Positions 1,887 to 60,625 of a stretch of DNA of 64,000 nucleotides are shown here, piece after piece. The DNA is taken from NCBI GenBank assembly GCA_043821585.1, contig JBDRCQ010000002.1:133969-197968 (forward strand), given 5' to 3'. The notes beneath the pieces are model-generated. The model was given only the letters and a program-made list of their open reading frames with translations, was not told the origin of the DNA and searched no databases. The translations under genes and the position numbers were made by a program. Within the stretch, counting starts at the first letter, position 1. The number at the start of each line of letters is the position of its first letter. Source of the stretch: an archaeon. GTDB taxonomy: Archaea; Nanobdellota; Nanobdellia; Pacearchaeales; GW2011-AR1.

Positions 1887-4120
1887 ATGCTTATGTAATA
1901 AGGGATCATGGATCTGTTCATTTTGAGATGTTTTCAGATACGGGTAGAAGTGCTCTTCTGTTTGAAGGAGAAGAGATCCCTTATATGCTTGGAAATGAAG
2001 TATTATATACCGTTTCGTTAGGTTCTGTTAGTTATGAGGGGGCGGAATTTTATGTAAATGGGGAACACTTCTTTTTGGGTGAGCGTGATAGTTTTAGACT
2101 GAGTGATGGGAACTGGATGGCTGTTTTAGATATAGGTTATGTTGAGGGACATAGTTCTGTCGAATTTATCATTGGGGGGCATGCGATTGTGTTGGAGGAG
2201 GGTTCAGATATAGATGTTGATAGGGCATATATTGATGGTCTTAGGGCTGATTTTGAATACACCATTGATGAAAGTGCGAACAGGTTTTATCTTGAAGAAA
2301 TCAGTTTTGACTGGCGTGCGGATGAAGAACGATTTATTGCTTCCGATGTTGATTATTTGAAAATGCCATTTTTTGAGACGTTTGAGTTTGTGTGGGGTGG
2401 CTGGCGAGGGGTAGGGGTAGGGGACGAAAGTTTTGATATTGAGACTATTAATAATATTGTTGATTTGGATTCTGTTACTGTTAAAAATGGTCCCGCGGAT
2501 TTAGAAGTTTTATATTCTGATGAAGGCTCTGATGTGTGGAGTGGAATTGGAGAACGTCCGACAGAAAGATTGGCCACTTCTAATACTAATGAGCTGACTT
2601 TTTATGAAAAGAAAGACGGGTTTGATTATGATAAATGGTTTGTTGCTTCTTGGAGGGATGAGCAAAATGCAGAGTCTTATTTGGTAAAAGCGGAAATTTA
2701 TCGCGATTCTGTGAGCGAGAGAGATGTGGCTGGTTTTTTCCTTTGGGGTGATGATGGCTGGGAACAGGCGGTTTGTTCCGGGATGGTTGAAGGAGAGGTT
2801 TGTGCGGTTGGTGATTTGACTTTGACTATTGAAGAAATCTATTATGAAGCCGGGGGAGATGAGTGGGTTGCGTTATCAATCAATGAAGGGGGAAATTTTC
2901 AGAGACTCTATACTGGGGAGGGGTTGACTATTCACTTACCTGTTGAATGTTGTGGCACGCCAGAGTATAGCTGTCCGGAGATTGGTAGTGTATGCTTGGG
3001 AAGGGATGACGAGTTTAGTTTATGGTTTACAGAGGAGAATATTGAAGGGGCTGTTGGAACCGGTGAGGATTTTTATGCAATGTTTAGGGCGATGGAAGAT
3101 GATGTGGGACTTAGTTACTTTGGACCTCCTGGAGAAATTCAGTTTTATGAGGCTGGAGATAGTGGAATTTATGAAGCGTATGTGTATTCTCCTTTGGCGA
3201 CAAAAATATTTTGGCGTTCAAATAATTCTTTGAGTCCTGCACAGATTATTTACCCTGGTGAAGAGTCTCTTGCTTCAGTTTATCTTAGAGGGGTGTGCGA
3301 GTGTGAAGGCGGTGTCGTTTCTATGAAAATGTCTAGCGAATCGATGCATCCAGTAGGATTAGTAGAATTTGGTTGTGGTGATGGCTCTGTCGATGATGCC
3401 GTGGAGGAATGCGATGATGGTGACGATAGTGATACTTATTATTTGGAAGATTCGAGTGATGCGGATGGGCCTTGTGTTCTTGATGATTCGTATCCAGCTA
3501 GGTCTTGCAAGCTGAATGTTTGTGGCGATGGTTACAAATATCCAAAGGGTCTCGATGGCGTAAGGGGGACGGAAGATGATGAAGAGTGCGATGATGGAAA
3601 TCTTGTTGATTGTGATGGTTGTAGTGATTCCTGCAAGGCAGAGGATTGCGGGGACGGAAAGTGTTGTCCTCATGAGAGGGGCGCTTGTGCGTTAGATTGT
3701 GAAACTTGTTTTGTTGCGGGAACAAAAGTTTTAGTTAACGGAATAGAAAAGAATATCGAAGATATTCTAGTTGGCGAGAGTGTTGTTTCGTTTGGAAATG
3801 GATTGGAGAGTTCTGGTGTGTTGCAGACGTTTGTTCATGATGTTTCTGGTTATCTTTTGATAAACGGGAAACTGAAGGTTACTGCTGAGCATCCGATGAT
3901 GATTAACGGGGCGTGGAGGAAGATTGGCGAGGCAGAGGTTGGAGATGTTTTGCAGACTCTGACTGGGGATGAGAAGATTTGGAATATTCGGAAAGTTGAT
4001 GAACGAGTGAAGGTTTATAATTTGGAAGTTGCAGAGAATCATAATTATTTTGCTGAAGGGTATTTAGTTCATAATAAGCCGCCCTTGGTAGAAGATGAAC
4101 CAAAAGGTCCTGAGAATTAG
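1781..4120 (+). CDS. secreted cysteine-rich-repeat protein with C-terminal Hint (intein/hedgehog-like) domain
   Basis: CGDG...EECDDGN...CDGCSDSC repeats lie at about 3360-3700. The Hint blocks span 3707-4075: CFVAGTKVLV, TAEHP and VYNLEVAENHNYFAEGYLVHN, followed by KPP... and TAG. Confidence 0.8.
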   Translation: MEFDEPAHSIITSDWILGDFIGTEIGVMCEQYEIVDAYVIRDHGSVHFEMFSDTGRSALLFEGEEIPYMLGNEVLYTVSLGSVSYEGAEFYVNGEHFFLGERDSFRLSDGNWMAVLDIGYVEGHSSVEFIIGGHAIVLEEGSDIDVDRAYIDGLRADFEYTIDESANRFYLEEISFDWRADEERFIASDVDYLKMPFFETFEFVWGGWRGVGVGDESFDIETINNIVDLDSVTVKNGPADLEVLYSDEGSDVWSGIGERPTERLATSNTNELTFYEKKDGFDYDKWFVASWRDEQNAESYLVKAEIYRDSVSERDVAGFFLWGDDGWEQAVCSGMVEGEVCAVGDLTLTIEEIYYEAGGDEWVALSINEGGNFQRLYTGEGLTIHLPVECCGTPEYSCPEIGSVCLGRDDEFSLWFTEENIEGAVGTGEDFYAMFRAMEDDVGLSYFGPPGEIQFYEAGDSGIYEAYVYSPLATKIFWRSNNSLSPAQIIYPGEESLASVYLRGVCECEGGVVSMKMSSESMHPVGLVEFGCGDGSVDDAVEECDDGDDSDTYYLEDSSDADGPCVLDDSYPARSCKLNVCGDGYKYPKGLDGVRGTEDDEECDDGNLVDCDGCSDSCKAEDCGDGKCCPHERGACALDCETCFVAGTKVLVNGIEKNIEDILVGESVVSFGNGLESSGVLQTFVHDVSGYLLINGKLKVTAEHPMMINGAWRKIGEAEVGDVLQTLTGDEKIWNIRKVDERVKVYNLEVAENHNYFAEGYLVHNKPPLVEDEPKGPEN

Positions 4121-4141
4121 TTTTTTGTTTTAGATAGTTTT
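4121..4141 (+). terminator. T-rich 3' flank (TTTTTTGTTTTAGATAGTTTT), duplicated after the paralog at 5249-5270
   Basis: Oligo-T tracts sit directly after the stop codon. A near-identical string follows the second Hint gene. Archaeal terminators are oligo-T. Confidence 0.35.
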
Positions 4142-4167
4142 AAAAAAGAGTATTTTGTTGTTTTTTC

Positions 4168-4272: not shown

Positions 4273-5266
4273 CAGAAGTTAAAGCAGAGTTGTGGGTTTA
4301 TGACACTATTGATCGCGAATATTATTTGGATGTTATAAATCTTGGTGATTTGAATGCTCAAGAAGTTGAGAGTGTTCAATTTTATTATGATCAATTTACA
4401 GATGATAGAGTCTATGATTTGACCTTGCATGTAGAAGGTGTTGATTCTGTAAGAGGTGATGACCCTAGACGTTCAATAATGTTTTCAGTTAGTGTGGGAG
4501 ATGTTCCGGAGTGTTCTGATAAAATAGATAATCCTTATTTTGGGAGGCCGAATGGAAATGAGCGATGTGACGAGAGGGATTCTAATTGTTTAATTGGAGA
4601 AGATGGAGATCCATATTGCGATGGAAGTGATGATTTGCTTGAGGGTTTGACCTGTTCTAATGAGGAGAAGGTAGAAGGTTGTAGAATTTATAAGATGCGT
4701 TACGATTGTGAAGCCGACCTTTGTAATGTTAAGAACTATCTAAGTTTGCGAGATGCTTGTGTGTGGAAGGGTATGGATGGGTGTGGTCTGCCAGAGATAC
4801 AATGTTTTGATGAGGGAACGAAGATAAAGATGTTTGATGGAACAGAGAAATATATTGAAGATGTTGAGGAAGGTGATTCTGTTTTAAGTTATGATTTGGA
4901 AAGCGGAATGAATGTCGAAGGAGTTGTTGAGAAAGTGTTTGTGCATGATTATGCCGGAGAGTTGTTGGAGATTGCCGGGATGGGAGTAACGCCTGAGCAT
5001 CCTGTTTTTGTGAATGGGGATTGGGTTGAGGCTGGGGAGATAGTTGTGGGAGATAGGTTGTCTGACGTGGAAGTCAAGAGTGTAGAGGAGAATCATTTCG
5101 AGGGGAATGTCTATAATTTACATGTTGGGAAGTTCAGAATTATTATGCCGAAGGAAATCTTGTGCATAACAAGCCACCTATGGGGTTTGAGCAGAAAGGG
5201 ATGTTTAGTCCTCCTGTAGAAAAAGGTTTTTGGGAAAGGGTGTTGGAGTTTTTTGGTTTTAGATAG
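4269..5266 (+). CDS. second cysteine-rich / C-terminal Hint-domain protein (shorter paralog; frame disrupted near 5127)
   Basis: Hint blocks CFDEGTKIKM, TPEHP and VYNLHVG are present. After a -1 shift at GGG 5127-5129 the sequence reads EVQNYYAEGNLVHNKPP..., ending at TAG 5264-5266. The uninterrupted track ORF is 4269-5219. Confidence 0.7.
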
Positions 5267-5353
5267 TTTTGTAATTTAGGGTAAAAGCCGACGGTGAATT
5301 TCTATCCAAAAGGTTTATAAATAAAATGTTCTTACTGGATGTAGACAAATACA

Positions 5354-8190: not shown

Positions 8191-11064
8191 TTAGTTCAGC
8201 TCAAAGTAAAAGTAAACATTAGACGTTTCTGTTTTGTCGTACTCTCTGAGTTTGACTGGCAGCTGTATTTCATAGTCGTATGTGCCGTGGTCTCCGGGCT
8301 TGCCTTTGTTGAATGGGCTCATGAAAACAAGGTCTTCTTCATCAACTGTGCCGTATTCTGAATCTGTGTCATCGTCGCTGTCCCAGAGTATTCCTGTTTT
8401 GAAGTTGCCGTTTTCTGAGGAGTCTATGATGGGGATGTTGGTTACTGTTTGTTTTCTTATGATGGTGGAGGTGTAGCCTAATGGTGGCCAGCCGCCTGTG
8501 GTGAATGTGTTTGCTACTGAGTCAGTGAAGTTTGTTGTGTTAAGGAGAATATCTATTTCCGTAAAGTCATCTGTTGCGTTGTTTCCAGAGAGATCTTGGC
8601 CTATTGCTTTTAGAGATGCCCAGTTGATGTTACTCTCTGTGTCTGCTACGAAGATGCTTCCTGTCAAAGAGGTCTCGTTCTCCCAGACAGTGACGTTTTC
8701 TATTGAGGAAGAAGCGAGTATTTTAGTTATCGTTGCGTTTCCATAGAAATCCTGCCAGGAGTTTATGTCAATTGAGCGATTCGCTCTGTTGTTTGTTTCG
8801 TTGAGTTCGTTTACTGTGCCGTTTGTTGCTAGAGGAGGGTCTAGGATTACATGAATTGTGTGTGGGCCGATTGTTGTGGTGAAGTTTATCGAGGCAACCG
8901 CTGTTCCTCCAAGCTCTGAAATTAGGAGGGACTGATTTGATCCAATTTGTATACCGTTCGTGTCTGGGTCTCCGTCGAAGAATTGCACCTTAACAGTTCC
9001 CTCTTGGCCGCCGATATTGTAAATTGTTGCGTTTATTGTCATGTTTGTTCCTTCGATAGTTGTTGCGTTATCGAAATCTATGTCTGTGGAGTTTAGAGTG
9101 AAATCTGGGGGGACTATCATATAGAACCATTCGTCTTCTGCTGTAAAGCCCACGTTGTTGATTGTGTCGTTACAGCGGACATTCCATTTTATCCAAGTGT
9201 TTTCTGTGAAACCAGATATTGTAAATGTGTTTTCTCCGCTTGGGTTGTATGCTTTTGTTTCTTCTAACGTGAAGAGGCCTGACTGGTCGTGGAAGATTGA
9301 ACACGAGTCAACTCCAGAGGGGTCTGTCGCCGTGTAATTTACTGTTATTGAGACTCCGAAGTTGGTTGTTCCGTTTTCAGGGAAACCAAGGATCACATCA
9401 GGTGGACGGAAGTCTATTTCAAATTCATAATAACCTGAAAGATTGTTCCCTAAGCCGTCTTGCATGATTGTTCCATTTGGTGATATGAACGCGGCGAATG
9501 CTCTGTAGATTCCTCCCGGATTGGAGTCTGTGTTAAATCCAGAGCCTTCTCCAGGGCCATTCCAGATGTTTGTTAGGTTGAGGGTTTCTCCAGCATTGAT
9601 CTCTCTTCTTTTTCCGGTTGTTGTGTCATTGACGATTGTCTCAAAGTTTTCCCAGTATCCTGATGAATTTGATAAGACCGATAAAAGAAGGTGGCCGCTT
9701 ATCGGTGTTGAGCCAGTATTGTTTATGATTGAAGGATTGTATGCGGTGGATGTGGCGTTTGGCCATTGAACGACTTCACAGTGGAATGTGTGGGAGGGGT
9801 CGCCGTTTCCTTCCTGGCCTCTTTCACAGTAGAAGGTGTCTTCGTCTAAGAGGTAACACGGATATTCTCCTTTAGCGTGGTTGTTTCCTTCCCCATTGTT
9901 GTAGAGTGAATAGGCGCAGAATCCAAGGGTTTTGTTTAAGTCGTCAACAGGATTTGAAAAAGAGGTATCAAACTGTAGGATGTTGCTGATTTCGGCTCCA
10001 GGGACGTGGTGCTCTACTTCTTCATTTCTGCCGCCTGGAAATTCTATAACGTATGCGACACATTCCTGGTTGGATGCTTCTGTAGTTCCTAATCCAGAGG
10101 TTAAGCAAGTTACGCTGCTGGTTCCATCCAAGTAACATTCTATATTTGCATGTTCTATTCCATCTCCGTCTGATTGGCAGCTGTAAATAAGCCAGGACTT
10201 GTCTCTGTTTACTGAGTGGCCGATACCTACTGTTGTTCCGGAATCGAAATGTGTTGATCCCAAATGAACTGGGGTGACGTTGGTTTCGTCGTTGAAACAG
10301 ACGACCTGTGCCTCTACAACTGAAACTCCGCAAGCAGTGTTGTCTCTTTGTAGATTGAGGTTTGTGGTGCTTGTTATATTGGCCATAACTTTTTGTTCTT
10401 CTGAACAAGTGTTAGTGCCAGAGCTTGCTTCTACGTTGTGGCGGGTTGAGACGAAACATTTTTCTTGGTAGTTTGAGGGGAGAGGTACATCACAGGACGC
10501 TAGAGAAACGTCTTCATTGCCGTCTGCGTTGGGCATCGTGTGGGAAATATGGCAGACGTCTATGTTATCTGATTGTAGGACGCTGTATGAATTGATCATT
10601 ATTCCTGTTGTGGATCCACGCTCTGCTGTTAGTTCTGATGAGTAGCCGTTTGAGATTGAGGAGAAGTATACGCGTCCGAGCCTGACATTAGGATCTTCTG
10701 TTGATGCTGCTCTAACTTGCGAGTCTGCTACGATGAATGTTTTGTTTATTTGGTACGTGTTACTTAGAGAATCTGTGCTGCTTGTAACTCCAGAGGTTAC
10801 CATGAATCCCTGTTCTGCTTGGACGTTGAAACTCACTATTGTGTAAGTTGTGTCGGTAATGTTTACTATTTCGTTAGGTATATATGCATTTTTATTTGTT
10901 TTTAGTGCTGTTGTGAGATTTGATTCTGCGAAGAAGTTTCCCATTGTGAGAGTTTGATTTGAGAAACCCGCGGTGTTGTTTGCCCAAATTGTGTAGTTGT
11001 AAGTTCCTTGGTACCAAGTTTGGGTAAAGTTATACTCGAATTGGCTGCCCCCTATTGGAGTCAT
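8191..11064 (-). CDS. giant NxS/T-rich surface (adhesin-like) protein with CARDB-like domain and conserved C-terminal module; N-terminus missing
   Basis: 957-aa ORF from the first ATG. It has a CARDB-like segment (…IYNIGGQEGTVKVQFFDGDP…NELNETNNRANRSIDI). Its C-terminal roughly 190 aa is paralogous to the end of the 11363-17473 protein. No signal peptide is present. Confidence 0.8.
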   Translation of the reverse strand: MTPIGGSQFEYNFTQTWYQGTYNYTIWANNTAGFSNQTLTMGNFFAESNLTTALKTNKNAYIPNEIVNITDTTYTIVSFNVQAEQGFMVTSGVTSSTDSLSNTYQINKTFIVADSQVRAASTEDPNVRLGRVYFSSISNGYSSELTAERGSTTGIMINSYSVLQSDNIDVCHISHTMPNADGNEDVSLASCDVPLPSNYQEKCFVSTRHNVEASSGTNTCSEEQKVMANITSTTNLNLQRDNTACGVSVVEAQVVCFNDETNVTPVHLGSTHFDSGTTVGIGHSVNRDKSWLIYSCQSDGDGIEHANIECYLDGTSSVTCLTSGLGTTEASNQECVAYVIEFPGGRNEEVEHHVPGAEISNILQFDTSFSNPVDDLNKTLGFCAYSLYNNGEGNNHAKGEYPCYLLDEDTFYCERGQEGNGDPSHTFHCEVVQWPNATSTAYNPSIINNTGSTPISGHLLLSVLSNSSGYWENFETIVNDTTTGKRREINAGETLNLTNIWNGPGEGSGFNTDSNPGGIYRAFAAFISPNGTIMQDGLGNNLSGYYEFEIDFRPPDVILGFPENGTTNFGVSITVNYTATDPSGVDSCSIFHDQSGLFTLEETKAYNPSGENTFTISGFTENTWIKWNVRCNDTINNVGFTAEDEWFYMIVPPDFTLNSTDIDFDNATTIEGTNMTINATIYNIGGQEGTVKVQFFDGDPDTNGIQIGSNQSLLISELGGTAVASINFTTTIGPHTIHVILDPPLATNGTVNELNETNNRANRSIDINSWQDFYGNATITKILASSSIENVTVWENETSLTGSIFVADTESNINWASLKAIGQDLSGNNATDDFTEIDILLNTTNFTDSVANTFTTGGWPPLGYTSTIIRKQTVTNIPIIDSSENGNFKTGILWDSDDDTDSEYGTVDEEDLVFMSPFNKGKPGDHGTYDYEIQLPVKLREYDKTETSNVYFYFELN

Positions 11065-11490
11065 TGTTTCTAGGAAGTTTTCGCCTAGCGGGGTGGTTAT
11101 ATTGGCTATTGCTGTGTCTATTGCACTTGTGGATGTTATTGTCGCATTTATAGATATGTTGTAACCATAACCGGTTGAAGAAGGGTAGTTATCTTGGAAG
11201 ATTGTTAGGACGTCTGTAACCGTTATGTTTGTGATATTTGAGCTTTGAAGTACGTAATCTGCGTTGTTGCCATTGAATGTTACATTTGTGGGGAAGGAGT
11301 TTATTCCTACTGGAGCATCTGTTGGAATTGTATAATTTATGGTTGCATAACCGGTTGCGTTTGTGATTGCTGAGAGGTTTTCTTGGAAGGTTATGTTTTG
11401 GTTAGGTATAGCTGAACTGTTGTCATATTCTAGCCTTGCCGTGATTGTTATGGGTTCGTTTCTTAAAGGATTTGATTGGTTGAACCAGAC
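11065..11490 (-). other. start-less upstream continuation of the 8191-11064 reading frame (142 codons of Ig-like-domain coding sequence)
   Basis: The same frame stays open up to the stop at 11491-11493. It translates to domain-like sequence (…ITARLEYDNSSAIPNQNITFQENLSAITNATGYATINYTIPTDAPVG…). It contains no in-frame ATG, GTG or TTG. Confidence 0.7.
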
Positions 11491-14400
11491 TTATCAGGTT
11501 ATGGCAAATCAGGGAAGCTTTGTTGCTTTTGGAAACGAGGAGAAAGGTAAGGCTGGAGCTATTCCAATGATTGTCGGTGAAGAACCGTTTTATACAATTT
11601 CTCAGAACCCTCGGGATCATATCAACTCGACTTGTTTGTCTGATTTGAAACCAGGGATGAGTTGTGATGTTAGTTGGAGTGTGAATGCCACTGGAGAAAT
11701 TAATTCAGTGTGGGAATTCTATGTGATAGCAAATACTACAAACTACACTAATTGGTTTTCTTCAGACAGCGAGTCTAGGAGAATTAATATTACAATTGTT
11801 AATCAACTTGCTCCGAGCGTTCCTCAACTTAATGCTCCTCAGAACGGTTCTGCTTCGGCTACGGTTCTTGAATTTAACTGGACTAATTCTACTGATGTGA
11901 ATAGTGATCCAATTTATTATGTTCTTCAGGTTAGCAATGTGTCAAACTTTTCTAGTTTGGTTTATTTCAATGGATCTATCCCTGAGACGGGGAGCCCAAC
12001 TGGAGATACGCCTGTCTTGCCTTCTTTTGGAACCTACTATTGGAGGGTTTTGGCAACAGATTTAATGGCCAATTCTTCATGGAGCCAGACTTGGACATTT
12101 TATTACGATGTTTCTGCACCTAATTTGACTTTTATTAATCAATCAGGGGAGGACAATGAAATAGTTGATGAATCTCATCCGCTTGATGAGGGAGAGAACA
12201 TGACGGTTTATGTGGAGGTTGATGATATTAACGTGGACAGCGTTTGGATTGTGGTTTGGGAGACCGTGAAAGGCGGGGCTGAGAAGGCAAAGATATTCTT
12301 TACATATGTGGGAGGGTTGTTGTGGAAGGCAGTCATTCCAACAGATTACTCTTGGGAGGGATTGGTTTATGATTATACTATTTATGCTAACGACACCCTG
12401 AATGAAACTGTTGAGTATGATGGGAACTTCACTATGCTACATGGCGATATAACTCTTGATTTAAGTCCAAATCCAGTTACGGAAACAACTGGGGTTATGG
12501 CTTTTGGACATCTTAATTTGACTAACGGGTCTGTTCTAGGGAGTTACCCTATAAACTTGTGGCTAAATGGAACGCTGTTGTTGTTTTCTAATTTGACAGC
12601 TAATGGGGCCTATGACAATTATCTTAATTTCAGCGATACTTCGAACTCTGAATTTGATGAAGGGGCTTACTTCCAGACTGAAAGCGATTGGCAGAATTTG
12701 ACGCTTGCTTCGGGTAATACTTCTGGCAACTTCACAAGAATCTTTGATGCTGGAGCGCGTGTTGAATGGGATAACATTTGGTGGTCTTCTGCGGGACATG
12801 CTTGTTCTGCAGTAGTATCATTTCAAGAAGGAGATTCTAATGGTTATTCGGGTACAGAAGATACTTATGTAGACAGCGGGGTTTCCTCGAGTAATTTTGG
12901 CTCGGCAGATGCAATTGTTGTTGATGGTTCTCCCGACAATGAAAATGGTCTTGTAATGTTCAGTAGAATCTTAGGAACAGGGTTTAATCAGATTCCTAGG
13001 AACTCAACGATAAGCGCGGCTAATGTAACGTTTGAAGTTTATGATCCGGGAAACCTTGTCGCGGTTTATGAGATTCTAGAAAACTGGACTGAAAGCCAGG
13101 CCACTCATGACAATAGGCTTACTGGAATTGCTTGGAGTTCTGACGGCTGCGAAGACGCTCCTTCAAGATCAACGACTTATGAAGATACATTCACAGCGGG
13201 AGTGGTTGGCGCGTATACAGCTGATATAACCAATGCCGCAAGGCGCTGGGTCAACGGAACCTCTAACAATTATGGTATTGTTCTTGATTTAACTACTAGT
13301 AACGGTATTAATATTCGTAGTAGCGAGTATTCTACTCAAGATGAAAGGCCTATTTTGACAGTTGGATACAGTTCGGATGACTGTACTGGTGTAGATGTCT
13401 ATGTTCGAACATCTAATGATAGGGTCTCCTGGAGCGCGTGGAAGAAGGTTTCTAATGGTGAAGGTATTAACGATACCAATTTGGCCAGTCGGTATCTTGA
13501 GTATAAAGTTGAGCTGACATCAACAGATCCTTCATTTACACCTTACTTACAAGAGTTTAGCGTTAATTATACTGCTGTTGTAACAGATACAAGCGGAGAT
13601 TATAGTTACAACTTTACTAACCCTTCGGCATACGCTGATTACGAATTTGTTGTTTCATCAGGATTAAGGACTATTGTGATAAATAATACGAAAACTTTGT
13701 CAGTTCAAACAGGCGTTGCTCCAGAAGTGGCTTTATTGTATCCTTCTGACGGACAGTGGTTTGCTTATGGAAACTTAACTTTCATTTACAATGCTACAGA
13801 CATAAACGATGACATGATTAATTCTACTCTGATTATAAATGGGTTGATTAATGCGACTAATTCCAGCGAAATCTTAAATGGGCTGAATAATAGTTTCTTT
13901 GCTAATTTTACTGGTGGTCAGTATAACTGGACGGTGAATGTCACTGATAGTTCGGGATTTGTATCTACTGATGCCTTGCGGAGTTTTTACGTTGATTTGG
14001 AAAATCCCGTTATTGAGCTAGTCTTCCCGCCAAATGGGACTTCTTATGTTCTTAATGAATTGAACCTCACGTTTAAGGCTACAGATAATCTTGATGATGT
14101 TTTGATGTGTGATGTCTTTCTTGGGGAAGATGCTATACATGATGATGTTCCTGTCGTTAATGGCGTGGAGACCAATTTCTCTTCCGGAGCGCTTACATCT
14201 GGTTGGTATTCTTGGTATGTCACTTGCGTAGACGAGGTGGGGAGAAGCAATATTAGTTCTATTGATTGGTTTTTGATAAATGACACCTTCCCAGAGGTTA
14301 CGCTTGTTTGGCCAGAAGAGAACTATTTTGATGGCGATGGAAATATTTCTTTTGTCTTTAACGCAACAGATAATTCTGGATTTTTAAACTGCAGTCTGAT

Positions 14401-17400
14401 AATTAATGATAGTTTTTATTCGCTTAATCAAACTTCTATAAACAATGGGCAGAATAGCACAATCAATGCTACGGGTCTTGGGGAGGGGAATCACAATTGG
14501 ACAGTAGAATGTTTTGATTTAAGTGCAGGTTCCGATAAAGCATCGGCTAGGAACTTTAGTGTGGATCTTTACTTTCCTACAATTTCACTTAACAGTCCTG
14601 AGAACTATGGGAATGTTAGCTCCGCTGACGTTAAGTTTAACTTTACTGCTAATGATACATTTGACTCTTTGTTAGACTGTAATTTAACAGTCGATAACGT
14701 GGTTAGAGATACATTCACAGCTAGCTCTGGCGTTGAAACAAGCAAGCAGGTGGATGACTTCACCGATGGTGAAAAGGTTTGGTATGTGACTTGTTGGGAT
14801 GGTGCGGGGCATACTAATTTGAGCTCTCTTTGGAGAGTAAACGTTCTTGAGCCTCCGACGGTTATTTTGAACACTGATAACGAAACCTCTTTTGATACTT
14901 CCGACTTCAATTTGAGTTATACGCCAAGTGATAATACAAACCTTAGTTCTTGTGATTTGTACATTGATGGCGCGTTCAATCAGACAAATGACACTGAAAT
15001 TATAAATGGCGTTCAACGGAATTTCACGGTTTTGGGAATGTCTGCTGGCCAGCATATGTGGTTTGTTAATTGTACTGACATGATGAATCTGACTAATATT
15101 TCTGAGACGCGCGTATTTGCTGTGGATACTTTTGGACCAAATATCACTCTTCATTATCCAGATGGTCATGAAATCGGAACCGACAATGTAACGTTTAACT
15201 TTACAGCAGTGGATGATACAGACAGCTCTTTTGTTTGTAATCTCACCGTCGATACTAGCATTGTGCGGGGAAGTTTTGTGGTAGACAATGGCACTGTTAC
15301 GAACGTAACAGTGGCCGACATAACTGATGGCTACCATGTGTGGTTTGTTAATTGTACAGATAGTGCTAGTAATACTGAGGGAAGTGCTATATTTAATTTC
15401 ACCAAGTCTACCCCTCCACAAGTCTCTTTAATTGCCCCTCCTGATGGATATTGGTTTAACGCTTTGCCGTTTAATCTGACTTATTTGCCTTCGGATGATG
15501 AGGGCTTCTTTGGGGCTGTGCTTTATATAAACGAGGAGTTCAATATGACAAACTCTACTGAAATTTTGGAGTTTGAGAATAATACGTTTGAAATATCCAG
15601 TTTTATGGAAGGGGCCTATAATTGGACAGTTAAGGTAACAGACGTTAGGGGACTTAATGATACTGCTTCCCCTAATTGGACATTTTATTTAGACACTACG
15701 CCTCCGCAACTTGTCTTGAACTATCCTAATGCCTCTGCTAATCTGTCTAATAACAATGTGACTTTTAATTTCACAGTTTCTGATAACTTAGACTTGAGCC
15801 TTGAGTGCAATCTGTATCTTGATGGGGAAGTGGATTATTCGGACAACTTTACGAGCGATTCTGATGTGGTCCATTATGCTCTTGTTGGTGACGGGTTGCA
15901 CTTCTGGAATGTTACTTGCGTGGATGAGGCTTCTAATTTCAATGTTAGCGAGATCATTAATTTTACTATTGAAGCGCCTCCGAACGTTACATTGGTTTCA
16001 CCAAATAACGGAGCTTACATAAATTATACAGATACGGTTTTTGTTTATCTACCAGAAGATCCTATTGGAATAACTAATTGTTCGATTTATATAGATGGTG
16101 TCTTTAATGATACGGACACTTCTGTGACTGCAAATGAAAACAATAATTTTACTGTTTCCAATATCCTTGAGGGTTATCACAATTGGACCGTCGAGTGTGT
16201 TGACGCAATTCCAGATTATAACTTATATAGGGCGCCTGTTTGGAATCTTACAATGGACAGAACCTCTCCAAACATCACCTTGAGTTCTCCAGGTGATGGG
16301 GAAAATGTTTTGGGGGCCCCAACGTTTAACTTTAGTGTCGAGGATAATTATGACGATCAAATGGATTGTGGAATCTACATAGACGGTGTCTTTAATGTTT
16401 CTACTAGCGTGAATAATGGTTCTTCTACTTCACAAACTATTTCAGGTCTTGATCTGGGGGACCATAGTTGGAATGTTTCGTGCGTTGATAATGCAAGTAA
16501 TTTAGGTTGGTCTGCGACTTGGAGCTTTAACGTTACCTTCTCTGATTTGTATGTAAATGAAAGTAGCCTCGTGTTTAATGATTCATCCCCTACAGAAAAT
16601 CAGACAATTCAAATAAATGCCACGGTTTATAATCTTGCTTCGGTGGGAATTTATAATGTTACAGTTAGTTTTTATGATGGTCACCCTTCGAGCGGAGGTG
16701 CTCAAATCGGAACCAATCAGACAATTAATTATATCGGAAGTCTGAGTCAGGAAGTTGCGACTGTTGAATGGAATGCAGATCTGGGCACTTCAGTAATTTT
16801 TGTGTTTGTTGATCCTCCTACGGAATCTAATGGGAGCATCGAGGAATGGGACGAGACCAACAATGAGGCAAATAAGTCAATTTCTGTTGGGGGTTGGCAT
16901 TTTGTTGTTGGCGATATTTCTGCACTTAGCGAATTTGATTTGGCAGAGGGAATTACTAACAAGAGTGTTAAAAGATGGACTGCAGTAAATTATGAAAGTG
17001 GGAATCTTTACGTTGCGGATGAGGATTCTTCGGTTTCCTGGACTACATTGCAAGCGCTGGGTAAGGATTCTAGCGATGCTGACGCTTCAAACGACTTTGA
17101 TGATATTGATAATTTATTGAGCATGACTGGTTTTGCAGATTCTGTCTCGAATCTTTATTTGAATAGCACGGGAGATATATCCCAATTAGATACTTATGTG
17201 ATCTTCAAAGGAAGTGTTGACGAAGTTCCTATTACAAATTCTACCAACAATACTAACTTCTTTACAGGGATCTTGTGGGACTTTAGTGATGATGTTGGCG
17301 ACGGGGAATATAGCATTGACGACGTGGAGGACCTAGTTTTCGTAACAGAGATACAAAAAGATCTAACCGGGGCTTATGGGGTTTATGATTATGAACTGAG

Positions 17401-18616: not shown

Positions 18617-19218
18617 TATTTCTTAGCTCCTTTTTTGGTTGGAGATTCTGACTTTTTTGCAGCCTTTTTTGCGGCAGATTCTTTCTTTTTCTTGTCTTCG
18701 TCTAACCATTGTAATTTTCCTAAACCTGCTTGTCGCATTGTCATGCCAATTTTTGGCATTCCTGCTTTGTAGCTTATTGCAACAACTCTTGCTAAGCAGT
18801 CGTCTCCTTTTGCAAGGGATCTCTTTGAGGATTTTCCAGAAAGTGTTCCAGTTTTATTTAGAGAAACGTAGTCTTCCATTGTCTGGGAGATGTGTATCAT
18901 CCCTCTTGCTGGACCGACTTGCATGAATGCGCCGAAGTTTGTTATCTCGGAGACTGTTCCGTAAACTAGCTCGTGCAATTCTGGTTTCCAGGTTAGGATT
19001 TTGAACCTCGAGTTATAGTACGCGGCGCCGTCTCCAGGGATTATCACGCCTTCGTCTATATCCCCGATTTCTAAAACTGCCATTACATAACCAAGTTCTT
19101 TTGTTACAGAATCAACGAAATTCTCGTTTAGCTGCTTTTCTACTGCTTCGTGAGTAGGCAGGCCGAAGTGTTTCGGTTCAACTCTTACATGATCTTCAAC
19201 ATCCAGGATATAGAACAT
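18616..19218 (-). CDS. rpoE1: DNA-directed RNA polymerase subunit E' (Rpo7) with S1 domain
   Basis: The N-terminus MFYILDVEDHVRVEPKHFG and the S1-like segment GTVSEITNFGAFMQVGPARGMIHISQ match Rpo7. It is the first gene of the cluster. Confidence 0.9.
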   Translation of the reverse strand: MFYILDVEDHVRVEPKHFGLPTHEAVEKQLNENFVDSVTKELGYVMAVLEIGDIDEGVIIPGDGAAYYNSRFKILTWKPELHELVYGTVSEITNFGAFMQVGPARGMIHISQTMEDYVSLNKTGTLSGKSSKRSLAKGDDCLARVVAISYKAGMPKIGMTMRQAGLGKLQWLDEDKKKKESAAKKAAKKSESPTKKGAKK

Positions 19219-27515: not shown

Positions 27516-28793
27516 TTATCTCTTATTCTTCTTCAGCACTTCCAATCCCTGTAACTTCTTCCCCGCAATATATTCATCCAACGCGCCACCTGATAATGAA
27601 ATATAGCCAAACTTCTTTTTGTTGATTTTTAGTTTGCTGATGGCATCGGTTGTGTGGCCGCCGCCGACTACAGAGAAGGCTTTGCTGTTTGCGATGGCTT
27701 TCATTATGGCGTTTGTGCCTTGGCAGAACTGCATGTCTTCGCAGTAACCTGCAACGCCTTTCATGAAGATTGATTTGGCTTGCTTGATTTTTTTGACGTA
27801 GAGTTTTTGGGTTTGTGGGCCGATGTCGAAGATTTCGTATTCGCTTGGGAAATCTTTTAATGAGATGTCTTTGCGTTTGCCGTTGACGTTGACAGCGAAG
27901 TCAATCGGTGTGAAGATGTTTTTGACTAATGGTGCGAGAGCGGGGACGAATTCTTTGATTTTGTTGTCTAGGAATTCGTTTTGGGCTCCGAGATTTGTGC
28001 CTTTGGCGATTGTGCAGAGCTGGCCGAAGATGCCGCAGGTTAGGACGTTTTGCGAGATATTTTTGCTCCCACCCACCCGCCCAGATAGTGCAATCGTCGC
28101 ACTATCCCTCTTGCTGTGCAACGATTGCTTATTTGTTGCAAAAGTATCTCTCTTTGGATTTTCTGCTTCAGAAAAATCTCGTGAACTTTGGACAGAGCTT
28201 TTTACAATATCAATGTTTTCTTTGGGTTTTGCGCCGCCGAAGATGTAAAGTGTGTCTTTGAGGTTGATTTTTTCGAGGCTTTTGACTTCGGCTTCCATGA
28301 CTCTGCCTATTCCGCAGGGGAGGACCTTTGGGAAACCTGTAACAGAGGTTTGCGCTCTATGGGAAACTGAGAAGGCGTCGTTTATGTAGATGTCGAATAA
28401 TGGCGCGAGGATTGTTATTAATGAGTTGTTTTTTATTGAGGTGTTGAATTCGTCTTTTTCTGAGCGGATGTTTTCTAGGAGGAGGACTTCGCCTGGTTTT
28501 AGGGTAGTGATTGCTTTGATTGCTTGTTTTCCGAGAATGTCGGGGACGAATTTGGCTTTGATTAATTTGGCGTGCTGTTTCAAAGAAGTAAAGTCTTTTT
28601 CTCCCGGCCTAGATTGGTGAGCGAGGATTACTGTTTTGGCCTTTTTCTTTTTTAGTTCATTGAGGGTTTGCATGTGGGCTTTCATTCTTTCACTGAATTG
28701 AGCTTTTCCTTTGATGATTTCTGTGTTTAAATCTAAACGTAGGAGGACGCGTTTGTTGCGGACGTTTAGGGTTGAGAGTGTGCGGAGTTTCAT
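27516..28793 (-). CDS. pgk: phosphoglycerate kinase carrying a ~43-codon in-frame insertion
   Basis: Recognisable motifs include VLLRLDLN, AHQSRPG, NDAFSVSHR, FGGAKP, GVAGYCE and GGGHT. The start is ATG 28793, overlapping the cdd stop as ATGA; the track ORF is extended to 28898. Confidence 0.9.
   Translation of the reverse strand: MKLRTLSTLNVRNKRVLLRLDLNTEIIKGKAQFSERMKAHMQTLNELKKKKAKTVILAHQSRPGEKDFTSLKQHAKLIKAKFVPDILGKQAIKAITTLKPGEVLLLENIRSEKDEFNTSIKNNSLITILAPLFDIYINDAFSVSHRAQTSVTGFPKVLPCGIGRVMEAEVKSLEKINLKDTLYIFGGAKPKENIDIVKSSVQSSRDFSEAENPKRDTFATNKQSLHSKRDSATIALSGRVGGSKNISQNVLTCGIFGQLCTIAKGTNLGAQNEFLDNKIKEFVPALAPLVKNIFTPIDFAVNVNGKRKDISLKDFPSEYEIFDIGPQTQKLYVKKIKQAKSIFMKGVAGYCEDMQFCQGTNAIMKAIANSKAFSVVGGGHTTDAISKLKINKKKFGYISLSGGALDEYIAGKKLQGLEVLKKNKR
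28053..28181 (-). repeat. GC-rich, inverted-repeat-bounded structured element inserted in frame in pgk
   Basis: In mRNA sense it is bounded by CGAGATTTTT … AAAAATATCTCG. It contains a 13-bp hairpin (28090-28102 / 28116-28128) and GGGCGGGTGGGTGGG (28068-28082). It shares motifs with the elements at 47284-47433 and 60474-60570. Confidence 0.6.
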
Positions 28794-45212: not shown

Positions 45213-45420
45213 TTTTTGTTTTGGAGGTGGTTGTGACGCGATGCGTTCCCAACTCGCGGTCACGCACGTTGCCAATGTTAGACAATACTCGGTACGTGAC
45301 GCGCTCGCCCACCCTGCCCTGTTTGTGCCGACGCTTTTCGTTTAGCGAGTTTGCGTCGGCCGATTAATAGCGCATCGCTATCTTGTGAGGGTCGGGATTA
45401 CGCGTTATTAGGACCTCTTT
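45213..45420 (-). repeat. GC-rich structured leader element upstream of gap (family member E1)
   Basis: TCCCAACTCG lies at 45247-45256. There is an 8-bp perfect stem GCCGACGC/GCGTCGGC (45327-45334 / 45353-45360), plus the stem GTGACGCG…CGCGGTCAC and CCCACCCTG at 45308-45316. Confidence 0.5.
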
Positions 45421-47058: not shown

Positions 47059-47283
47059 TTAGGCTTCTACAGAAACGCATTCGCCTTTAAGGCAGAGGCA
47101 GTCGAGACTTCTGTCGCCTCGGTGTGAGCAGTCGCAGTCTTCGTTTGAGAAAGTTCTTAGTGCTACGATTAGTAGCATAAGGACGATTGCAATTGTTAGG
47201 ATTATTTTTGTTGGTTTTTTCATGCTAATCATTTGATCGGCTTCGTTAAAAATCTTTTCTTTTGCAGTTTTGAATTCCCTCAT
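47059..47283 (-). CDS. small single-TM protein with Cys-rich C-terminus
   Basis: The product starts MREFKTAKEKIF, has the TM helix ILTIAIVLMLLIVAL, and ends CDCSHRGDRSLDCLCLKGECV. The TTG extension in the track is rejected. Confidence 0.45.
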   Translation of the reverse strand: MREFKTAKEKIFNEADQMISMKKPTKIILTIAIVLMLLIVALRTFSNEDCDCSHRGDRSLDCLCLKGECVSVEA

Positions 47284-47433
47284 GAGTTTCACTTTCAGTG
47301 AAAATCCCAACTCGTAGCCACGCGCCCAGATTAGTGGCGCTTTGTGACGTATAACTTGCTCGCCCTACCTACGCCTCCTTCCCGCACCAATCAAACGAGT
47401 AAACCTGCAATCTTGGGCTTTTTCCAACAAATC
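47284..47433 (-). repeat. GC-rich structured element (family member E2) between the P-type ATPase stop and the small membrane protein gene
   Basis: TCCCAACTCG lies at 47305-47314 and GCCCAGATTAGTG at 47323-47335. There is a stem GCCAC…GTGGC, and GCTCGCCCTACC aligns with E1. Confidence 0.5.
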
Positions 47434-50076
47434 TTATATTTCCATCAAGTTTAGGAACTTCTTTTTGTTGTTTATCTTTTTCGCAATGTCAAATATTGCC
47501 AGGAGAGCGAGTGAAAAGGCTATCGCAATGCCCCAGTCAGCTAGGGTGATTGGTACGGTTTCGAAAACTTTGTTAAGTGGCGTGTAAACTATTGCGAGTG
47601 TGGCTATGAGTGAGATTATTGAAGCATAGACTAGATATTTGTTGACGAGTGGTGAGCGGTTTAGTACTCCTTTTCTGAATGATCTAAAGTTGAATGCGGA
47701 GGCGATTTCCAGCGTTATGAGGGATACCAAGGCGGTTGTTCTGGCGTATTCAATGTTTCGATCTAGGATATTGAACGTGAAGAAGAACACCGTTAGGACA
47801 AATAGAGCTAGCAGACTTCCTGTTAAGATTAACAAGATAATGAAGTTTTTGTTTAGGAGTTCTGATTTTTTTCTAGGTGTTGCGTCCATTACATCTGTTG
47901 AGGAGGGGTTGAAGCCAAGGGTGATGGCTGGTAGATTATCCGTGACAAGGTTCATGAAGAGAATTTGTAGGGCGAATAGTAGAGGGATTTGCCAGCCAAG
48001 AAGCGGAGTGAGTAGGACGCCGACAAAGATGATAGTTAGCTCGGCAAAATTGCAGGAAAGTTGATAGGTCACAAATTTTCTTACGTTTCTGAAGATTGTT
48101 CGGCCTTCTTTGATCGCCGAGACTATTGTTGTGAAGTCGTCGTCTTTTAATGTCAGGTCGGCGACTTCTCTTGAGACGTCTGTTCCGTTTTTTCCCATTG
48201 CAACGCCGATGTGTGCTTCTTTGAGTGCAGGTGCGTCGTTGACTCCATCGCCAGTCATTGTAACTATCTCGCCATTTGCTTTCAGAGCTTTGACTATCCT
48301 TAATTTATGTTCCGGTTTTACTCTGGCCAGAATGACAATCGAACCGATTACTTTTGAAAGTTCTTCATCTGTAATACGATCTAGTTCGTGCCCCTCCATT
48401 ACTTTTCCGCGAAGTCCGATTTGGTTTGCTATTGACAATGCAGTTTCTTTGTTGTCGCCTGTGATCATTTTAACTTTGATACCTGCTTTGAGGCAGATTT
48501 TGATAGATTCTTTGACGCCTTCTCGAGGCGGATCTTCCATGCCAACTAAGCCTAGGAAAATTAGGTCTTGTTCAAGTGTTCTCTTTTCAAATACTGAAAC
48601 TTTTTTGTAGGTAATTGCGAGAGTTCTCAATGTTTGAGATGTCATCCTAATGTTTTCTTTTAGGATTTTCTTTTTGTCCTTGGTTGTCAGTTTGAAAACG
48701 CCGTTGTGTCTTTGAATGTATGCGCATTTTTCCAGAATAAACTCAAGAGCGCCCTTTGAGAAGACGAAATTTTCTTTTTCGCGTTTGCAGACAACAGTCA
48801 TTCTTTTTCGTTCTGAACTGAAGGGTATTTCTTCGATTCTTTTTAGTTTTAGGTCCTCTTTGTAAAGGCCTTGTTTAGCAGCCATTATTAATAATGCTGC
48901 TTCTGTTGGCGTTCCGGAGATTTTGAATGTGTTTTCCTCGCCGGCTCTTTCTATTCGAGAGTCATTGCATGATATTGCAGCTCTTAACAACAGGTCCAGA
49001 ACAGGTTCCTTTCCGATTGAAATCTTTTTACCCGAGGAGGTGAAGTCTCCTGACGCTTCGTAACCTGTTCCAGAAATTTCTATTATTTTGTTGTCAGAGA
49101 ATATTCGGTTGACAGTCATTTCTCCTTTTGTGATTGTTCCGGTTTTGTCAGAGCAGATGACGGTTGTTTCGCCGAGCGTTTCGATGGTGGACATTCTGTT
49201 GACGATCGCATTTTCTTTGGCCATCTTTCTGGCGCCGCTGGCCAGGGTTGTTATTAATACAACTGGAAAACCTTCTGGAAAGGCAGAGACTGAAAGAGCA
49301 ATTACCAGGATTAGCGCTTCGATGACAAAGGTTTGCGAGAGCTCGGGGGCTCTCCAGAGCATTAGTAAGCCTGTTAAAATAGAGACTGTGATCGCAAGAG
49401 TGGCCATATATTTAGCAATTTTGTTGATTTTCTTTTGGAGAGGGAGTTCTTTTTCTGCGGTTGAGATCATGTGAGCAATTTTTCCAAATTTTGTGTTCAT
49501 GCCTGTGTGGAGAACATTGGCCAGGCATTTTCCGTTTACCACGAATGAACCCATGAATATGAGGTTTTTGTCAGAATATTTTTTAAGGTTTTTCGCAGTT
49601 TCTTTTTTTATCTCTTTGGATTCTCCGGTGAGGATTGATTCGTTTATGTAAAGCTCTTTTTCTTCCAGGATGATGCAGTCTGCAGGAATCTTCTCGCCGC
49701 TTCTGAGAACTAAGATGTCGCCGGGAACTATCTGGGTGGAAAGAATCTCTTGTTCTTTGTTGTCGCGGATCACTATAGAAACTGGTAGGATAATTTTTTT
49801 CAAGGCTTTGATTGCTTTGTCTGCTCTGTACTCTTGTATGAAACCAAGAGATACAACCATCACGATTACTGCGATTATTGTATACGCGGTGATTGACTTA
49901 CCTACAAAGAAAGAGATAAGCATTGCAGCGAGTAAGAGGTAAATTATGAAGTTGTTTTTTATTTGTCTTGTGAGAATTCTTAGAGGGGTATTTAGTGAGA
50001 CCTCTTGGATCTCGTTTGTGCCGAACCTCTCTAAAATGGCTTCAGCTTCTTCTTTTGTAAGACCTCTTTTTTCCAT
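47434..50076 (-). CDS. P-type cation-transporting ATPase (type II, Ca2+/cation-like)
   Basis: Motifs present are TGES, the phosphorylation site CSDKTGTIT, MITGDN and TGDGVNDAPALKEA. The protein is 880 aa with about 10 TM segments. Confidence 0.95.
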   Translation of the reverse strand: MEKRGLTKEEAEAILERFGTNEIQEVSLNTPLRILTRQIKNNFIIYLLLAAMLISFFVGKSITAYTIIAVIVMVVSLGFIQEYRADKAIKALKKIILPVSIVIRDNKEQEILSTQIVPGDILVLRSGEKIPADCIILEEKELYINESILTGESKEIKKETAKNLKKYSDKNLIFMGSFVVNGKCLANVLHTGMNTKFGKIAHMISTAEKELPLQKKINKIAKYMATLAITVSILTGLLMLWRAPELSQTFVIEALILVIALSVSAFPEGFPVVLITTLASGARKMAKENAIVNRMSTIETLGETTVICSDKTGTITKGEMTVNRIFSDNKIIEISGTGYEASGDFTSSGKKISIGKEPVLDLLLRAAISCNDSRIERAGEENTFKISGTPTEAALLIMAAKQGLYKEDLKLKRIEEIPFSSERKRMTVVCKREKENFVFSKGALEFILEKCAYIQRHNGVFKLTTKDKKKILKENIRMTSQTLRTLAITYKKVSVFEKRTLEQDLIFLGLVGMEDPPREGVKESIKICLKAGIKVKMITGDNKETALSIANQIGLRGKVMEGHELDRITDEELSKVIGSIVILARVKPEHKLRIVKALKANGEIVTMTGDGVNDAPALKEAHIGVAMGKNGTDVSREVADLTLKDDDFTTIVSAIKEGRTIFRNVRKFVTYQLSCNFAELTIIFVGVLLTPLLGWQIPLLFALQILFMNLVTDNLPAITLGFNPSSTDVMDATPRKKSELLNKNFIILLILTGSLLALFVLTVFFFTFNILDRNIEYARTTALVSLITLEIASAFNFRSFRKGVLNRSPLVNKYLVYASIISLIATLAIVYTPLNKVFETVPITLADWGIAIAFSLALLAIFDIAKKINNKKKFLNLMEI

Positions 50077-60473: not shown

Positions 60474-60570
60474 CTTTTGGATTTTAGCAGGTTTACGATT
60501 CCCTCTTGCTGCGACTGTCATCGCGACCCACCCTGGCCGCCCAAATCCATTCCGCCCCAAATTATTGGTA
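60474..60570 (-). repeat. GC-rich leader element upstream of tpiA (family member E4)
   Basis: TCCCTCTTGCTG at 60500-60511 is identical to 28105-28116 in the pgk insertion. CCCACCCTG at 60527-60535 is shared with E1. Four G-tracts occur in the minus sense (60527-60558). Confidence 0.5.
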
Positions 60571-60625
60571 AACCTACAATGCCTCTTTTGGATAAATATT
60601 TAAACGAGGTTAAATTATTAAAGTT

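Follow-up and report, generated by a model that had tools for sequence, protein, structure and literature searches.

The window analysed here is a 64,000-nt (64 kb) stretch of contig JBDRCQ010000002.1 from an archaeon of the Pacearchaeales, and the feature under study is an extra block of sequence inside its phosphoglycerate kinase (PGK) gene, pgk. The gene occupies the open reading frame (ORF) at 27516-28793 on the minus strand (425 codons plus stop), and its identification in an initial annotation made from the sequence alone was confirmed by Pfam (PF00162, E = 8.7e-84), with the match falling in two separate stretches. The encoded protein is identical to a protein from an NCBI metagenome-assembled genome (MAG), P0001, which is encoded on a 201-kb contig. 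The interval between its FGGAK and TIAKG motifs holds 71 residues (72 had been counted initially) versus 24 in the nearest relative, and the extra 43-residue block, RDFSE…KNIS, was found as described. Alignment to orthologues, which had been proposed as a check, showed that the closest PGKs (P0002-P0004, 375-378 residues, 83-85% identity outside the gap) are without these codons. We consider it highly probable that the block is a copy of a miniature inverted-repeat transposable element (MITE) with ends of the type used by the IS6 family of insertion sequences (IS), and that it is read in frame.

The boundaries of the insert were determined by comparison with empty-site orthologues. The inserted element is a 3'-truncated copy of approximately 149 nt at 28050-28198 on the minus strand, absent from P0002 (locus L002) and P0003 (locus L215). 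It starts at 28198 with GCTCTGTCCAAAGTTCA, its 3' boundary is uncertain by approximately 3 nt, it reads in frame as S-SVQSSRDF…SKNIS-Q, and the net gain over P0002 is 47 codons. The 5' terminal inverted repeat, GCTCTGTCCAAAGTTCACGAGATTTTTCT, spans 28170-28198 and consists of an IS6-like outer tip at 28186-28198 and an inner arm at 28172-28181 (CGAGATTTTT), which pairs with a 3' inner arm, AAAAATATCTCG, at 28053-28064. The segment 28053-28181 is, as first reported, 129 nt (43 codons) without a stop, and the imperfect inverted repeat reported at its edges is present; this repeat does not delimit the insert exactly, however, since the true start lies 17-18 nt further 5'.

Within the insert, a hairpin of 13 bp, one of them U·G, pairs 28116-28128 with 28090-28102 (span 28090-28128) around a 13-nt loop that includes AGCAAGAGGGA, and a G-tract forming a G-quadruplex-type motif, GGGCGGGTGGGTGGG, is located at 28068-28082. 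Both had been described correctly, and the G-tract is a recurrent module of the repeat family presented below as well as one of just two canonical G-quadruplex motifs in the window. The description of the block as much more GC-rich than its surroundings did not hold, given a GC content of 45.0% vs 43.7% in the rest of pgk; GC richness is confined to the 3' half (54.7%, vs 35.4% in the 5' half). Sense-strand GC skew was +0.16 in the element vs -0.23 in the rest of pgk. Folding of the insert gave modest z-scores of -2.6 in the mRNA sense and -3.25 on the opposite strand, and whole-element values near -3 on both strands are expected of any inverted-ended element.

Residues 204-248 of the window PGK had no match in the solved Pyrococcus horikoshii enzyme (2cun). 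An AlphaFold2 model of the window PGK was confident except for residues 204-245, which were modelled as coil with a predicted local distance difference test (pLDDT) score below 50, flanked by a confident helix (190-202) and a confident strand (250-252). In the PGK topology, the helix end at the insertion site points away from the nucleotide site. The ratio of nonsynonymous to synonymous divergence (dN/dS) was 0.13 for the window pgk against its insert-free sister and 0.10-0.13 for the insert-bearing pgk genes (a second one is described next), indicating purifying selection on both, and the host genes appear functional. An in-frame, stop-free insert combined with these dN/dS values and a low-pLDDT loop makes readthrough as a surface loop the simplest reading; most likely the insert would be translated as a disordered surface loop with the PGK fold kept intact. 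We infer both that the insert is translated and that PGK activity is retained.

A more distant PGK of 441 residues, P0005 from Candidatus Pacearchaeota UBA73, was found to carry an insert at the same codon position. The added length is 65 residues in this protein and 47-48 in the window PGK, and no third insert-bearing PGK was present among the best 120 PGKs obtained by searching a profile of P0001 and P0005 against 5.8 billion proteins. The corresponding empty site is preserved in contig L214, which encodes the PGK P0012 and reads ATC CTT CAA AAC AAC TCA AAC at this position. The UBA73 contig, L001, consists here of the L214 sequence plus exactly 195 nt, flanked by the direct repeat TCAAAACA; the 195-nt copy runs from GCCCTGTTCAAAATTCGCGAGATTTT to AAAATCTCGCAAGAAGATTCTTCAGAACAGAGC(G). 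Its duplications are intact (8/8) and its 10-bp and 6-bp helices are perfect. Both pgk inserts are multiples of three without stops. Four of the six frames are stop-free in the window insert (28053-28199, minus strand), and in the UBA73 copy only the used frame is open.

The two pgk copies are related (E = 8e-4), share 24 of 29 bases of the 5' end GCTCTGTCCAAAGTTCACGAGATTTTTCT, and have the inner 3' arm …ATCTCGCAA in common. Their interiors are unrelated and overall identity is 54%; the 13-bp hairpin of the window copy is not conserved in UBA73. The UBA73 interior is instead identical at 91 of 96 positions to an intergenic copy, L214b, on the contig of P0012, at a host synonymous divergence of 0.56, while synonymous divergence (dS) between the two insert-bearing hosts is 1.43. 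A neighbor-joining tree of the PGKs was calculated from 370 gap-free columns with 200 bootstraps. Of the 200 bootstrap trees, 193 joined P0001 to P0002 and all 200 joined P0005 to P0012 (90.5% identity), both partners being insert-free; none made P0001 and P0005 sisters. The tree, together with the intact state of the UBA73 copy, its similarity to L214b, and the unrelated interior of the window copy, favours two independent insertions, so that the pgk site was probably hit twice. The initial annotation had held that a homologous insert in related PGKs would point to an ordinary lineage-specific loop; P0005 does have an insert of that form, but one that is probably a separate mobile copy and not an inherited loop.

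Other features were observed at the pgk loci of these relatives. Directly downstream of the insert-bearing pgk of UBA73 (L001:11418-14868) are cas1, cas2, cas4, and a gene for a 534-residue Cas12f1-like_TNB protein, and at the same position downstream of pgk in the sister contig L214 are toxin-antitoxin and HEPN/nucleotidyltransferase genes. In L004, a 70-residue ORF with a PGK Pfam match (5128-5340), approximately 1 kb downstream of an intact pgk, appears to be a duplicated pgk fragment. P0050, a 401-aa PGK from ENA, has a different insert of approximately 23 residues (…CQESYKRFLSTQRTKTKKRKFSE…) elsewhere in the protein, close to its C-terminus, and the PGKs of its clade may have been struck by insertions more than once.

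Related DNA was sampled as approximately 140 kb of contigs from ten loci, a small part of each genome; the hosts are Pacearchaeota-like DPANN archaea, and L214 is a 17-kb ENA contig (ERZ925065). A hidden Markov model (HMM) built from the two pgk copies and searched against the DNA of the fetched loci identified a full-length intergenic copy at L214:11354-11548 (E = 1e-25), and follow-up HMM searches identified more copies, at least six in L214, one in L215, and one in L001. The L214 copies are located at 968-1097, 1545-1850, ~4000-4151, 8756-9313, ~11354-11548, and 17003 to the contig end, all on one strand; their density and orientation bias are striking, and the five whose position could be decided all lie directly upstream of a co-oriented gene. 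No family copies were found in six other related loci (L002, L004, and L217-L220), and four pgk neighbourhoods of relatives (77 kb) contained neither a family copy nor a transposase.

Full copies are approximately 185-560 nt in length, contain no ORF, start with (G)GCTCTGTTGAAAAAG, and end in its reverse complement. Their terminal inverted repeats are of the form GGCTCTGTTGAAAA…TTTTCAACAGAGCC, with family ends GGCTCTGTTG, and their interiors are made up of G-tracts and GC-rich hairpin modules, the 557-nt L214 copy being an array of several such modules. Terminal inverted repeats were observed in L214a (GGCTCTGTTGA…TCAACAGAGCC) and also in L214d, L215a, L214b, and the pgk copy of L001. Target duplications of 8 contiguous identical bases surrounded all four copies that could be scored, and in two of them the repeat was a perfect 9 bp. 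L214a extends from GGCTCTGTTGAAAAAG to TTTTCAACAGAGCC (3' end also given as CAACAGAGCC) between two copies of CAAAAACGC, L214d extends from AGCTCTGTTG to CAACAGAACC between two copies of TTTATAAGT, and L215a is flanked on both sides by TCTACACC; the fourth is the UBA73 pgk copy with TCAAAACA on both sides. The G-quadruplex motif of the window copy is also carried by L214e, as GGGCGGGTGGGTCGGG, the G-tract module common to these two being ATCTGGGCGGGTGGGT (E = 2e-4), and G-tracts are present in the UBA73 pgk copy and L214d. The family therefore has the attributes of a MITE: terminal inverted repeats, a target duplication with an empty site, and small, non-coding, multi-copy members.

Assignment to the IS6 type was based on IS6100 reference ends taken from published papers. 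Each end of L214a agreed with the IS6100 left repeat, GGCTCTGTTGCAAA, in 13 of 14 positions, and other copies matched at 12 of 14, while the window pgk copy (AGCTCTGTC-CAAAG) matched at 9 of 14 ungapped and approximately 11 of 14 with one gap. IS6 family members generate 8-bp target repeats, have GG tips followed by cTGTt and caaa motifs, include known MITEs, and are abundant in archaea (PMC7986276); ISfinder holds two IS6-family MITEs, of 227 and 336 bp (PMC7986276). The family described here has the same terminal motif (GG tip, cTGTt, then an A-rich caaa-like motif) and an 8-bp duplication (here up to 9, with two copies having 9-bp and not 8-bp repeats), and it shares with IS6/IS26 MITEs the lack of an ORF, the size range, and a transposon family common in archaea. 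It differs from them in its interior, where G-tracts and covarying hairpins form an array that varies between copies and is not merely two joined IS ends, and in its DPANN hosts, for which no MITE description was found.

BLAST of the family copies against plasmids and phages gave no match, a scan of viral contigs for the terminal repeat gave one chance match only, and a loose 15-base pattern gave approximately 120 matches in genome contigs by chance, the UBA73 contig being the only real one. An 18-base 5'-end pattern had 88 matches in metagenome contigs, none with the 3' end, and nearly all of these were one unrelated repeat of gutless-worm metagenomes. This abundant repeat (L126-L213; JGI Ga0056108, Ga0209259, Ga0126332, and others) contains GTCCAAACTTCACGAGATTTT, which is near-identical to the 5' 21-mer of the insert, has nothing else in common with it, and lacks a 3' counterpart.

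Family pieces in the window were searched for with nhmmer and an HMM, as well as with a covariance model of the central hairpin; only sequences from outside the window went into either model. In the window pgk copy, the 5' end matched HMM positions 1-29 (E = 0.02), and the central hairpin module is not present. A near full-length copy with decayed terminal repeats is located at 47244-47422 on the minus strand (nhmmer E = 6.2e-9; covariance model match at 47304-47365, E = 7.9e-5), between a P-type ATPase gene and a small ORF. A 65-nt hairpin module at 45246-45310 on the minus strand, composed of GGGCGAGC, an 11-bp stem, and GCGAGTTGGGA (covariance model E = 2.4e-10), lies 34 nt upstream of the start codon of gap, which Pfam identifies as encoding GAPDH; by nhmmer the region upstream of gap reached E = 0.03. 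Directly upstream of tpiA (TIM by Pfam), a decayed, G-rich remnant at 60483-60576 on the minus strand gave two collinear matches, HMM 19-61 (E = 1.9) and HMM 119-164 (E = 0.0043), and its membership in the family is held with moderate confidence. It lies between a TATA-like TTTAAATATTTAT (~60590-60605, minus-strand reading) and the tpiA start codon, and it may form the tpiA 5' leader.

The initial annotation had tied the pgk block to the tpiA leader by a shared 12-mer and to the region 47284-47433 by GCCCAGAT(T)AGTG. Both matches are present, but as evidence they are at chance level (BLAST E = 0.39-1.4), and BLAST and repeat searches within the window using the 240-nt region examined by that annotation gave only chance-level k-mers; single-sequence searches are too weak for the divergent window copy. 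The relatedness of the two regions was nevertheless upheld by the profile and covariance-model tests. The 12-mer TCCCTCTTGCTG also occurs at 18900-18911 on the plus strand inside a conserved Rpb7/S1-domain gene, where it encodes part of …GPARGM…; this occurrence is due to chance and is a warning on k-mer evidence. Elsewhere in the window, direct repeats at spacings of ~282-288 nt and multiples thereof (13911-16476; repeat families D1, D2, D5, D10, and D16) are probably coding sequence for a large surface protein with repeated domains.

The proposal that a member of an intergenic repeat family landed in pgk as a tolerated MITE-like insertion is supported by the ends, the duplications, the intergenic copies, and the insert-free orthologues. 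In the mechanism that we propose, an IS6-type DDE transposase acting in trans, presumably supplied by an autonomous partner, would have placed a copy in an A-rich stretch of pgk corresponding to the loop that leads, in the C-terminal domain, from the post-GGAK helix into the following beta-strand. Element and duplication together came to a multiple of three, and no stop interrupted the sense frame; ribosomes would therefore read through, and the protein would gain 47-48 residues in the form of a disordered surface loop. The window copy would later have lost its outer 3' repeat and duplication by deletion, leaving a fossil that can no longer move. The UBA73 PGK would have received a second copy, complete and apparently recent, at the same codon position, most likely independently, and use of the same site could have been favoured by an A-tract target preference and by the few insertion-tolerant places in PGK.

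Several observations weigh against this account. The window pgk copy is without the outer 3' repeat of full copies and without a recognisable target duplication, and one host codon is gone, which suggests a later deletion. A tblastn search with a Tnp26 query found no IS6 transposase in the 64 kb window or in the ~140 kb of ten related loci, a small part of these genomes. As the sole query, the window copy matches only itself, and its family membership is carried by several weaker links (E = 0.02 for the 5' repeat, 8e-4 for the UBA73 copy, and 2e-4 to 0.03 for short module matches). The inner helix CGAGATTTT/AAAATCTCG is common to the two pgk copies and is replaced in L214b by the compensatory pair TGTTGATTTT/AAAATCAACA, from which it follows that the family copies are mosaic. 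Finally, MITEs do not usually insert twice at one codon, and the reason proposed above for such a double hit is no more than plausible.

That shared codon position, the 24 of 29 shared 5' bases, and the inner helix that L214b lacks could also be accounted for by one ancient insertion, or lineage-specific loop, in the ancestor of P0001-P0012, followed by several precise losses and by overwriting of the UBA73 interior through gene conversion; recombination between target duplications can indeed remove an element precisely. We regard this history as unlikely. On the neighbor-joining tree it takes at least five precise losses, against two gains, and it sits poorly with the intact duplications and perfect helices of the UBA73 copy despite a host dS of 1.4, with a UBA73 interior that is 95% identical to an intergenic copy of another genome, and with the unrelated interior of the window copy. 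A role as a co-opted cis-acting structured RNA or DNA module, with the pgk hairpin or G-quadruplex tuning translation or stability and related pieces acting as leaders at gap and tpiA, was likewise judged unlikely. The central family hairpin does covary strongly (93.6% of cells paired, compensatory changes at 7 of 14 pairs, a result reached by 0 of 500 shuffles), its recurrent U·G pairs are mismatches on the opposite strand, copies lie on one strand per contig and in sense to the next gene in all five decidable L214 cases and all four window cases, and of the four window pieces all but one touch a glycolytic gene (pgk, gap, or tpiA). The covarying module is, however, missing from the pgk copy, the 13-bp hairpin of which is not conserved in the other pgk copy; the regulatory option raised initially has no direct support at pgk. 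The regions upstream of gap in four relatives are without the module, for which reason the idea of a conserved glycolytic-gene leader was set aside, a co-opted or orientation-selected role being still conceivable. Covariation may also reflect the transposition machinery or DNA structure, and copy numbers are small.

An RNA-level intervening sequence had been offered as another option; whether as a bulge-helix-bulge (BHB) intron or as a translational bypass element, either of which would leave the protein canonical, it is very improbable. DPANN and other archaea splice BHB substrates, and the element is strongly structured (z ~ -3). Both pgk loci were, however, scanned exhaustively for two 3-nt bulges separated by a 4-bp helix, and no such arrangement at or near the boundaries was common to the two copies, the sole boundary candidate in the window needing a bulge that the UBA73 copy does not have; multiples of three without stops are not needed if the sequence is excised; and Rfam had no match, with one tRNA being the only hit in the whole window at the gathering threshold and E-value scans of 27950-28300 and 47150-47550 giving nothing meaningful. 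An archaeal BHB intron was accordingly rejected, as was an intein: inteins have at least ~130 residues with an N-terminal Cys/Ser block and C-terminal His-Asn and nucleophile blocks, and the inserts have 47-48 residues in the window and 65 in UBA73, with no intein motifs. We give the least credence to the reading that assembly or binning created the insert, for instance through a chimeric join at a repeat. Only one NCBI MAG contig is known to encode the window protein, and repeats do cause misassembly, but the insert keeps the frame and pgk continues without a break to either side of it within a 201-kb contig, and two assemblies of a different organism (UBA73 at NCBI and Logan SRR5037222) carry a comparable insertion there.

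The preferred reading, a MITE copy translated within PGK, resembles the Rickettsia palindromic elements (RPEs) of Ogata et al. (2000, 2002), as summarised in PMC10969869. In that summary, RPEs are palindromic multi-copy repeats of approximately 100-150 bp that occur in frame in housekeeping and metabolic genes of a reduced genome and add a peptide where the fold allows, and both pgk copies are likewise in-frame, stop-free insertions at a structurally permissive site. RPEs differ in being bacterial, in having, in the summary account, no recognised IS-type ends or target duplications (here IS6-like ends and 8-9 bp duplications), and in placing a conserved peptide in many host proteins. Here pgk is the only known intragenic location, with the insert found in 2 of the best 120 PGKs and the other copies intergenic, and a profile of the two insert peptides searched against 1.84 billion representative proteins gave only three spurious tandem-repeat proteins. 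ERIC/IRU, Correia (CREE), BOX, and RUP elements are similarly small, imperfect, dispersed palindromes that are mostly gene-adjacent and co-transcribed, form stable RNA hairpins, and are occasionally intragenic with open frames; they differ in having bacterial hosts, other ends and targets (TA for Correia), and no sequence relationship to the present family. Archaeal BHB introns occur in protein genes, for example cbf5 of Crenarchaeota, and are also short structured intervening sequences; in contrast to these, the pgk insert has no boundary BHB, is in frame and open, and has DNA-transposon hallmarks and intergenic relatives.

Most likely, the insert is an evolutionary curiosity of an already known type that involves no new mechanism. 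It is doubtful, though conceivable, that the family is instead a mobile carrier of a strand-specific G-tract and covarying hairpin module that acts, in sense to its neighbour gene, as a portable cis-regulatory element in DPANN, or that a sharp target preference hit the same pgk codon twice in an archaeal counterpart of the Rickettsia elements. The one-strand orientation and the covarying hairpin are best regarded as leads and not as findings.

What makes the locus interesting is that its host is a DPANN archaeon, that one PGK site was apparently used repeatedly, and that the interior of the element is structured and built from modules. The family appears to be an undescribed group of IS6-type MITEs in Pacearchaeota-like archaea, for which the ends, the duplications, and a hairpin covariance model are now defined, and its copies could be mistaken in annotation for structured RNA genes, introns, or lineage-specific protein domains. 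Even in tiny, streamlined DPANN genomes, a transposon fragment would seem able to become a translated loop of 47-65 residues in an essential glycolytic enzyme, with the same permissive site in PGK apparently used twice. This would constitute an archaeal parallel to the Rickettsia palindromic elements, in which variation in protein length is derived from mobile DNA.

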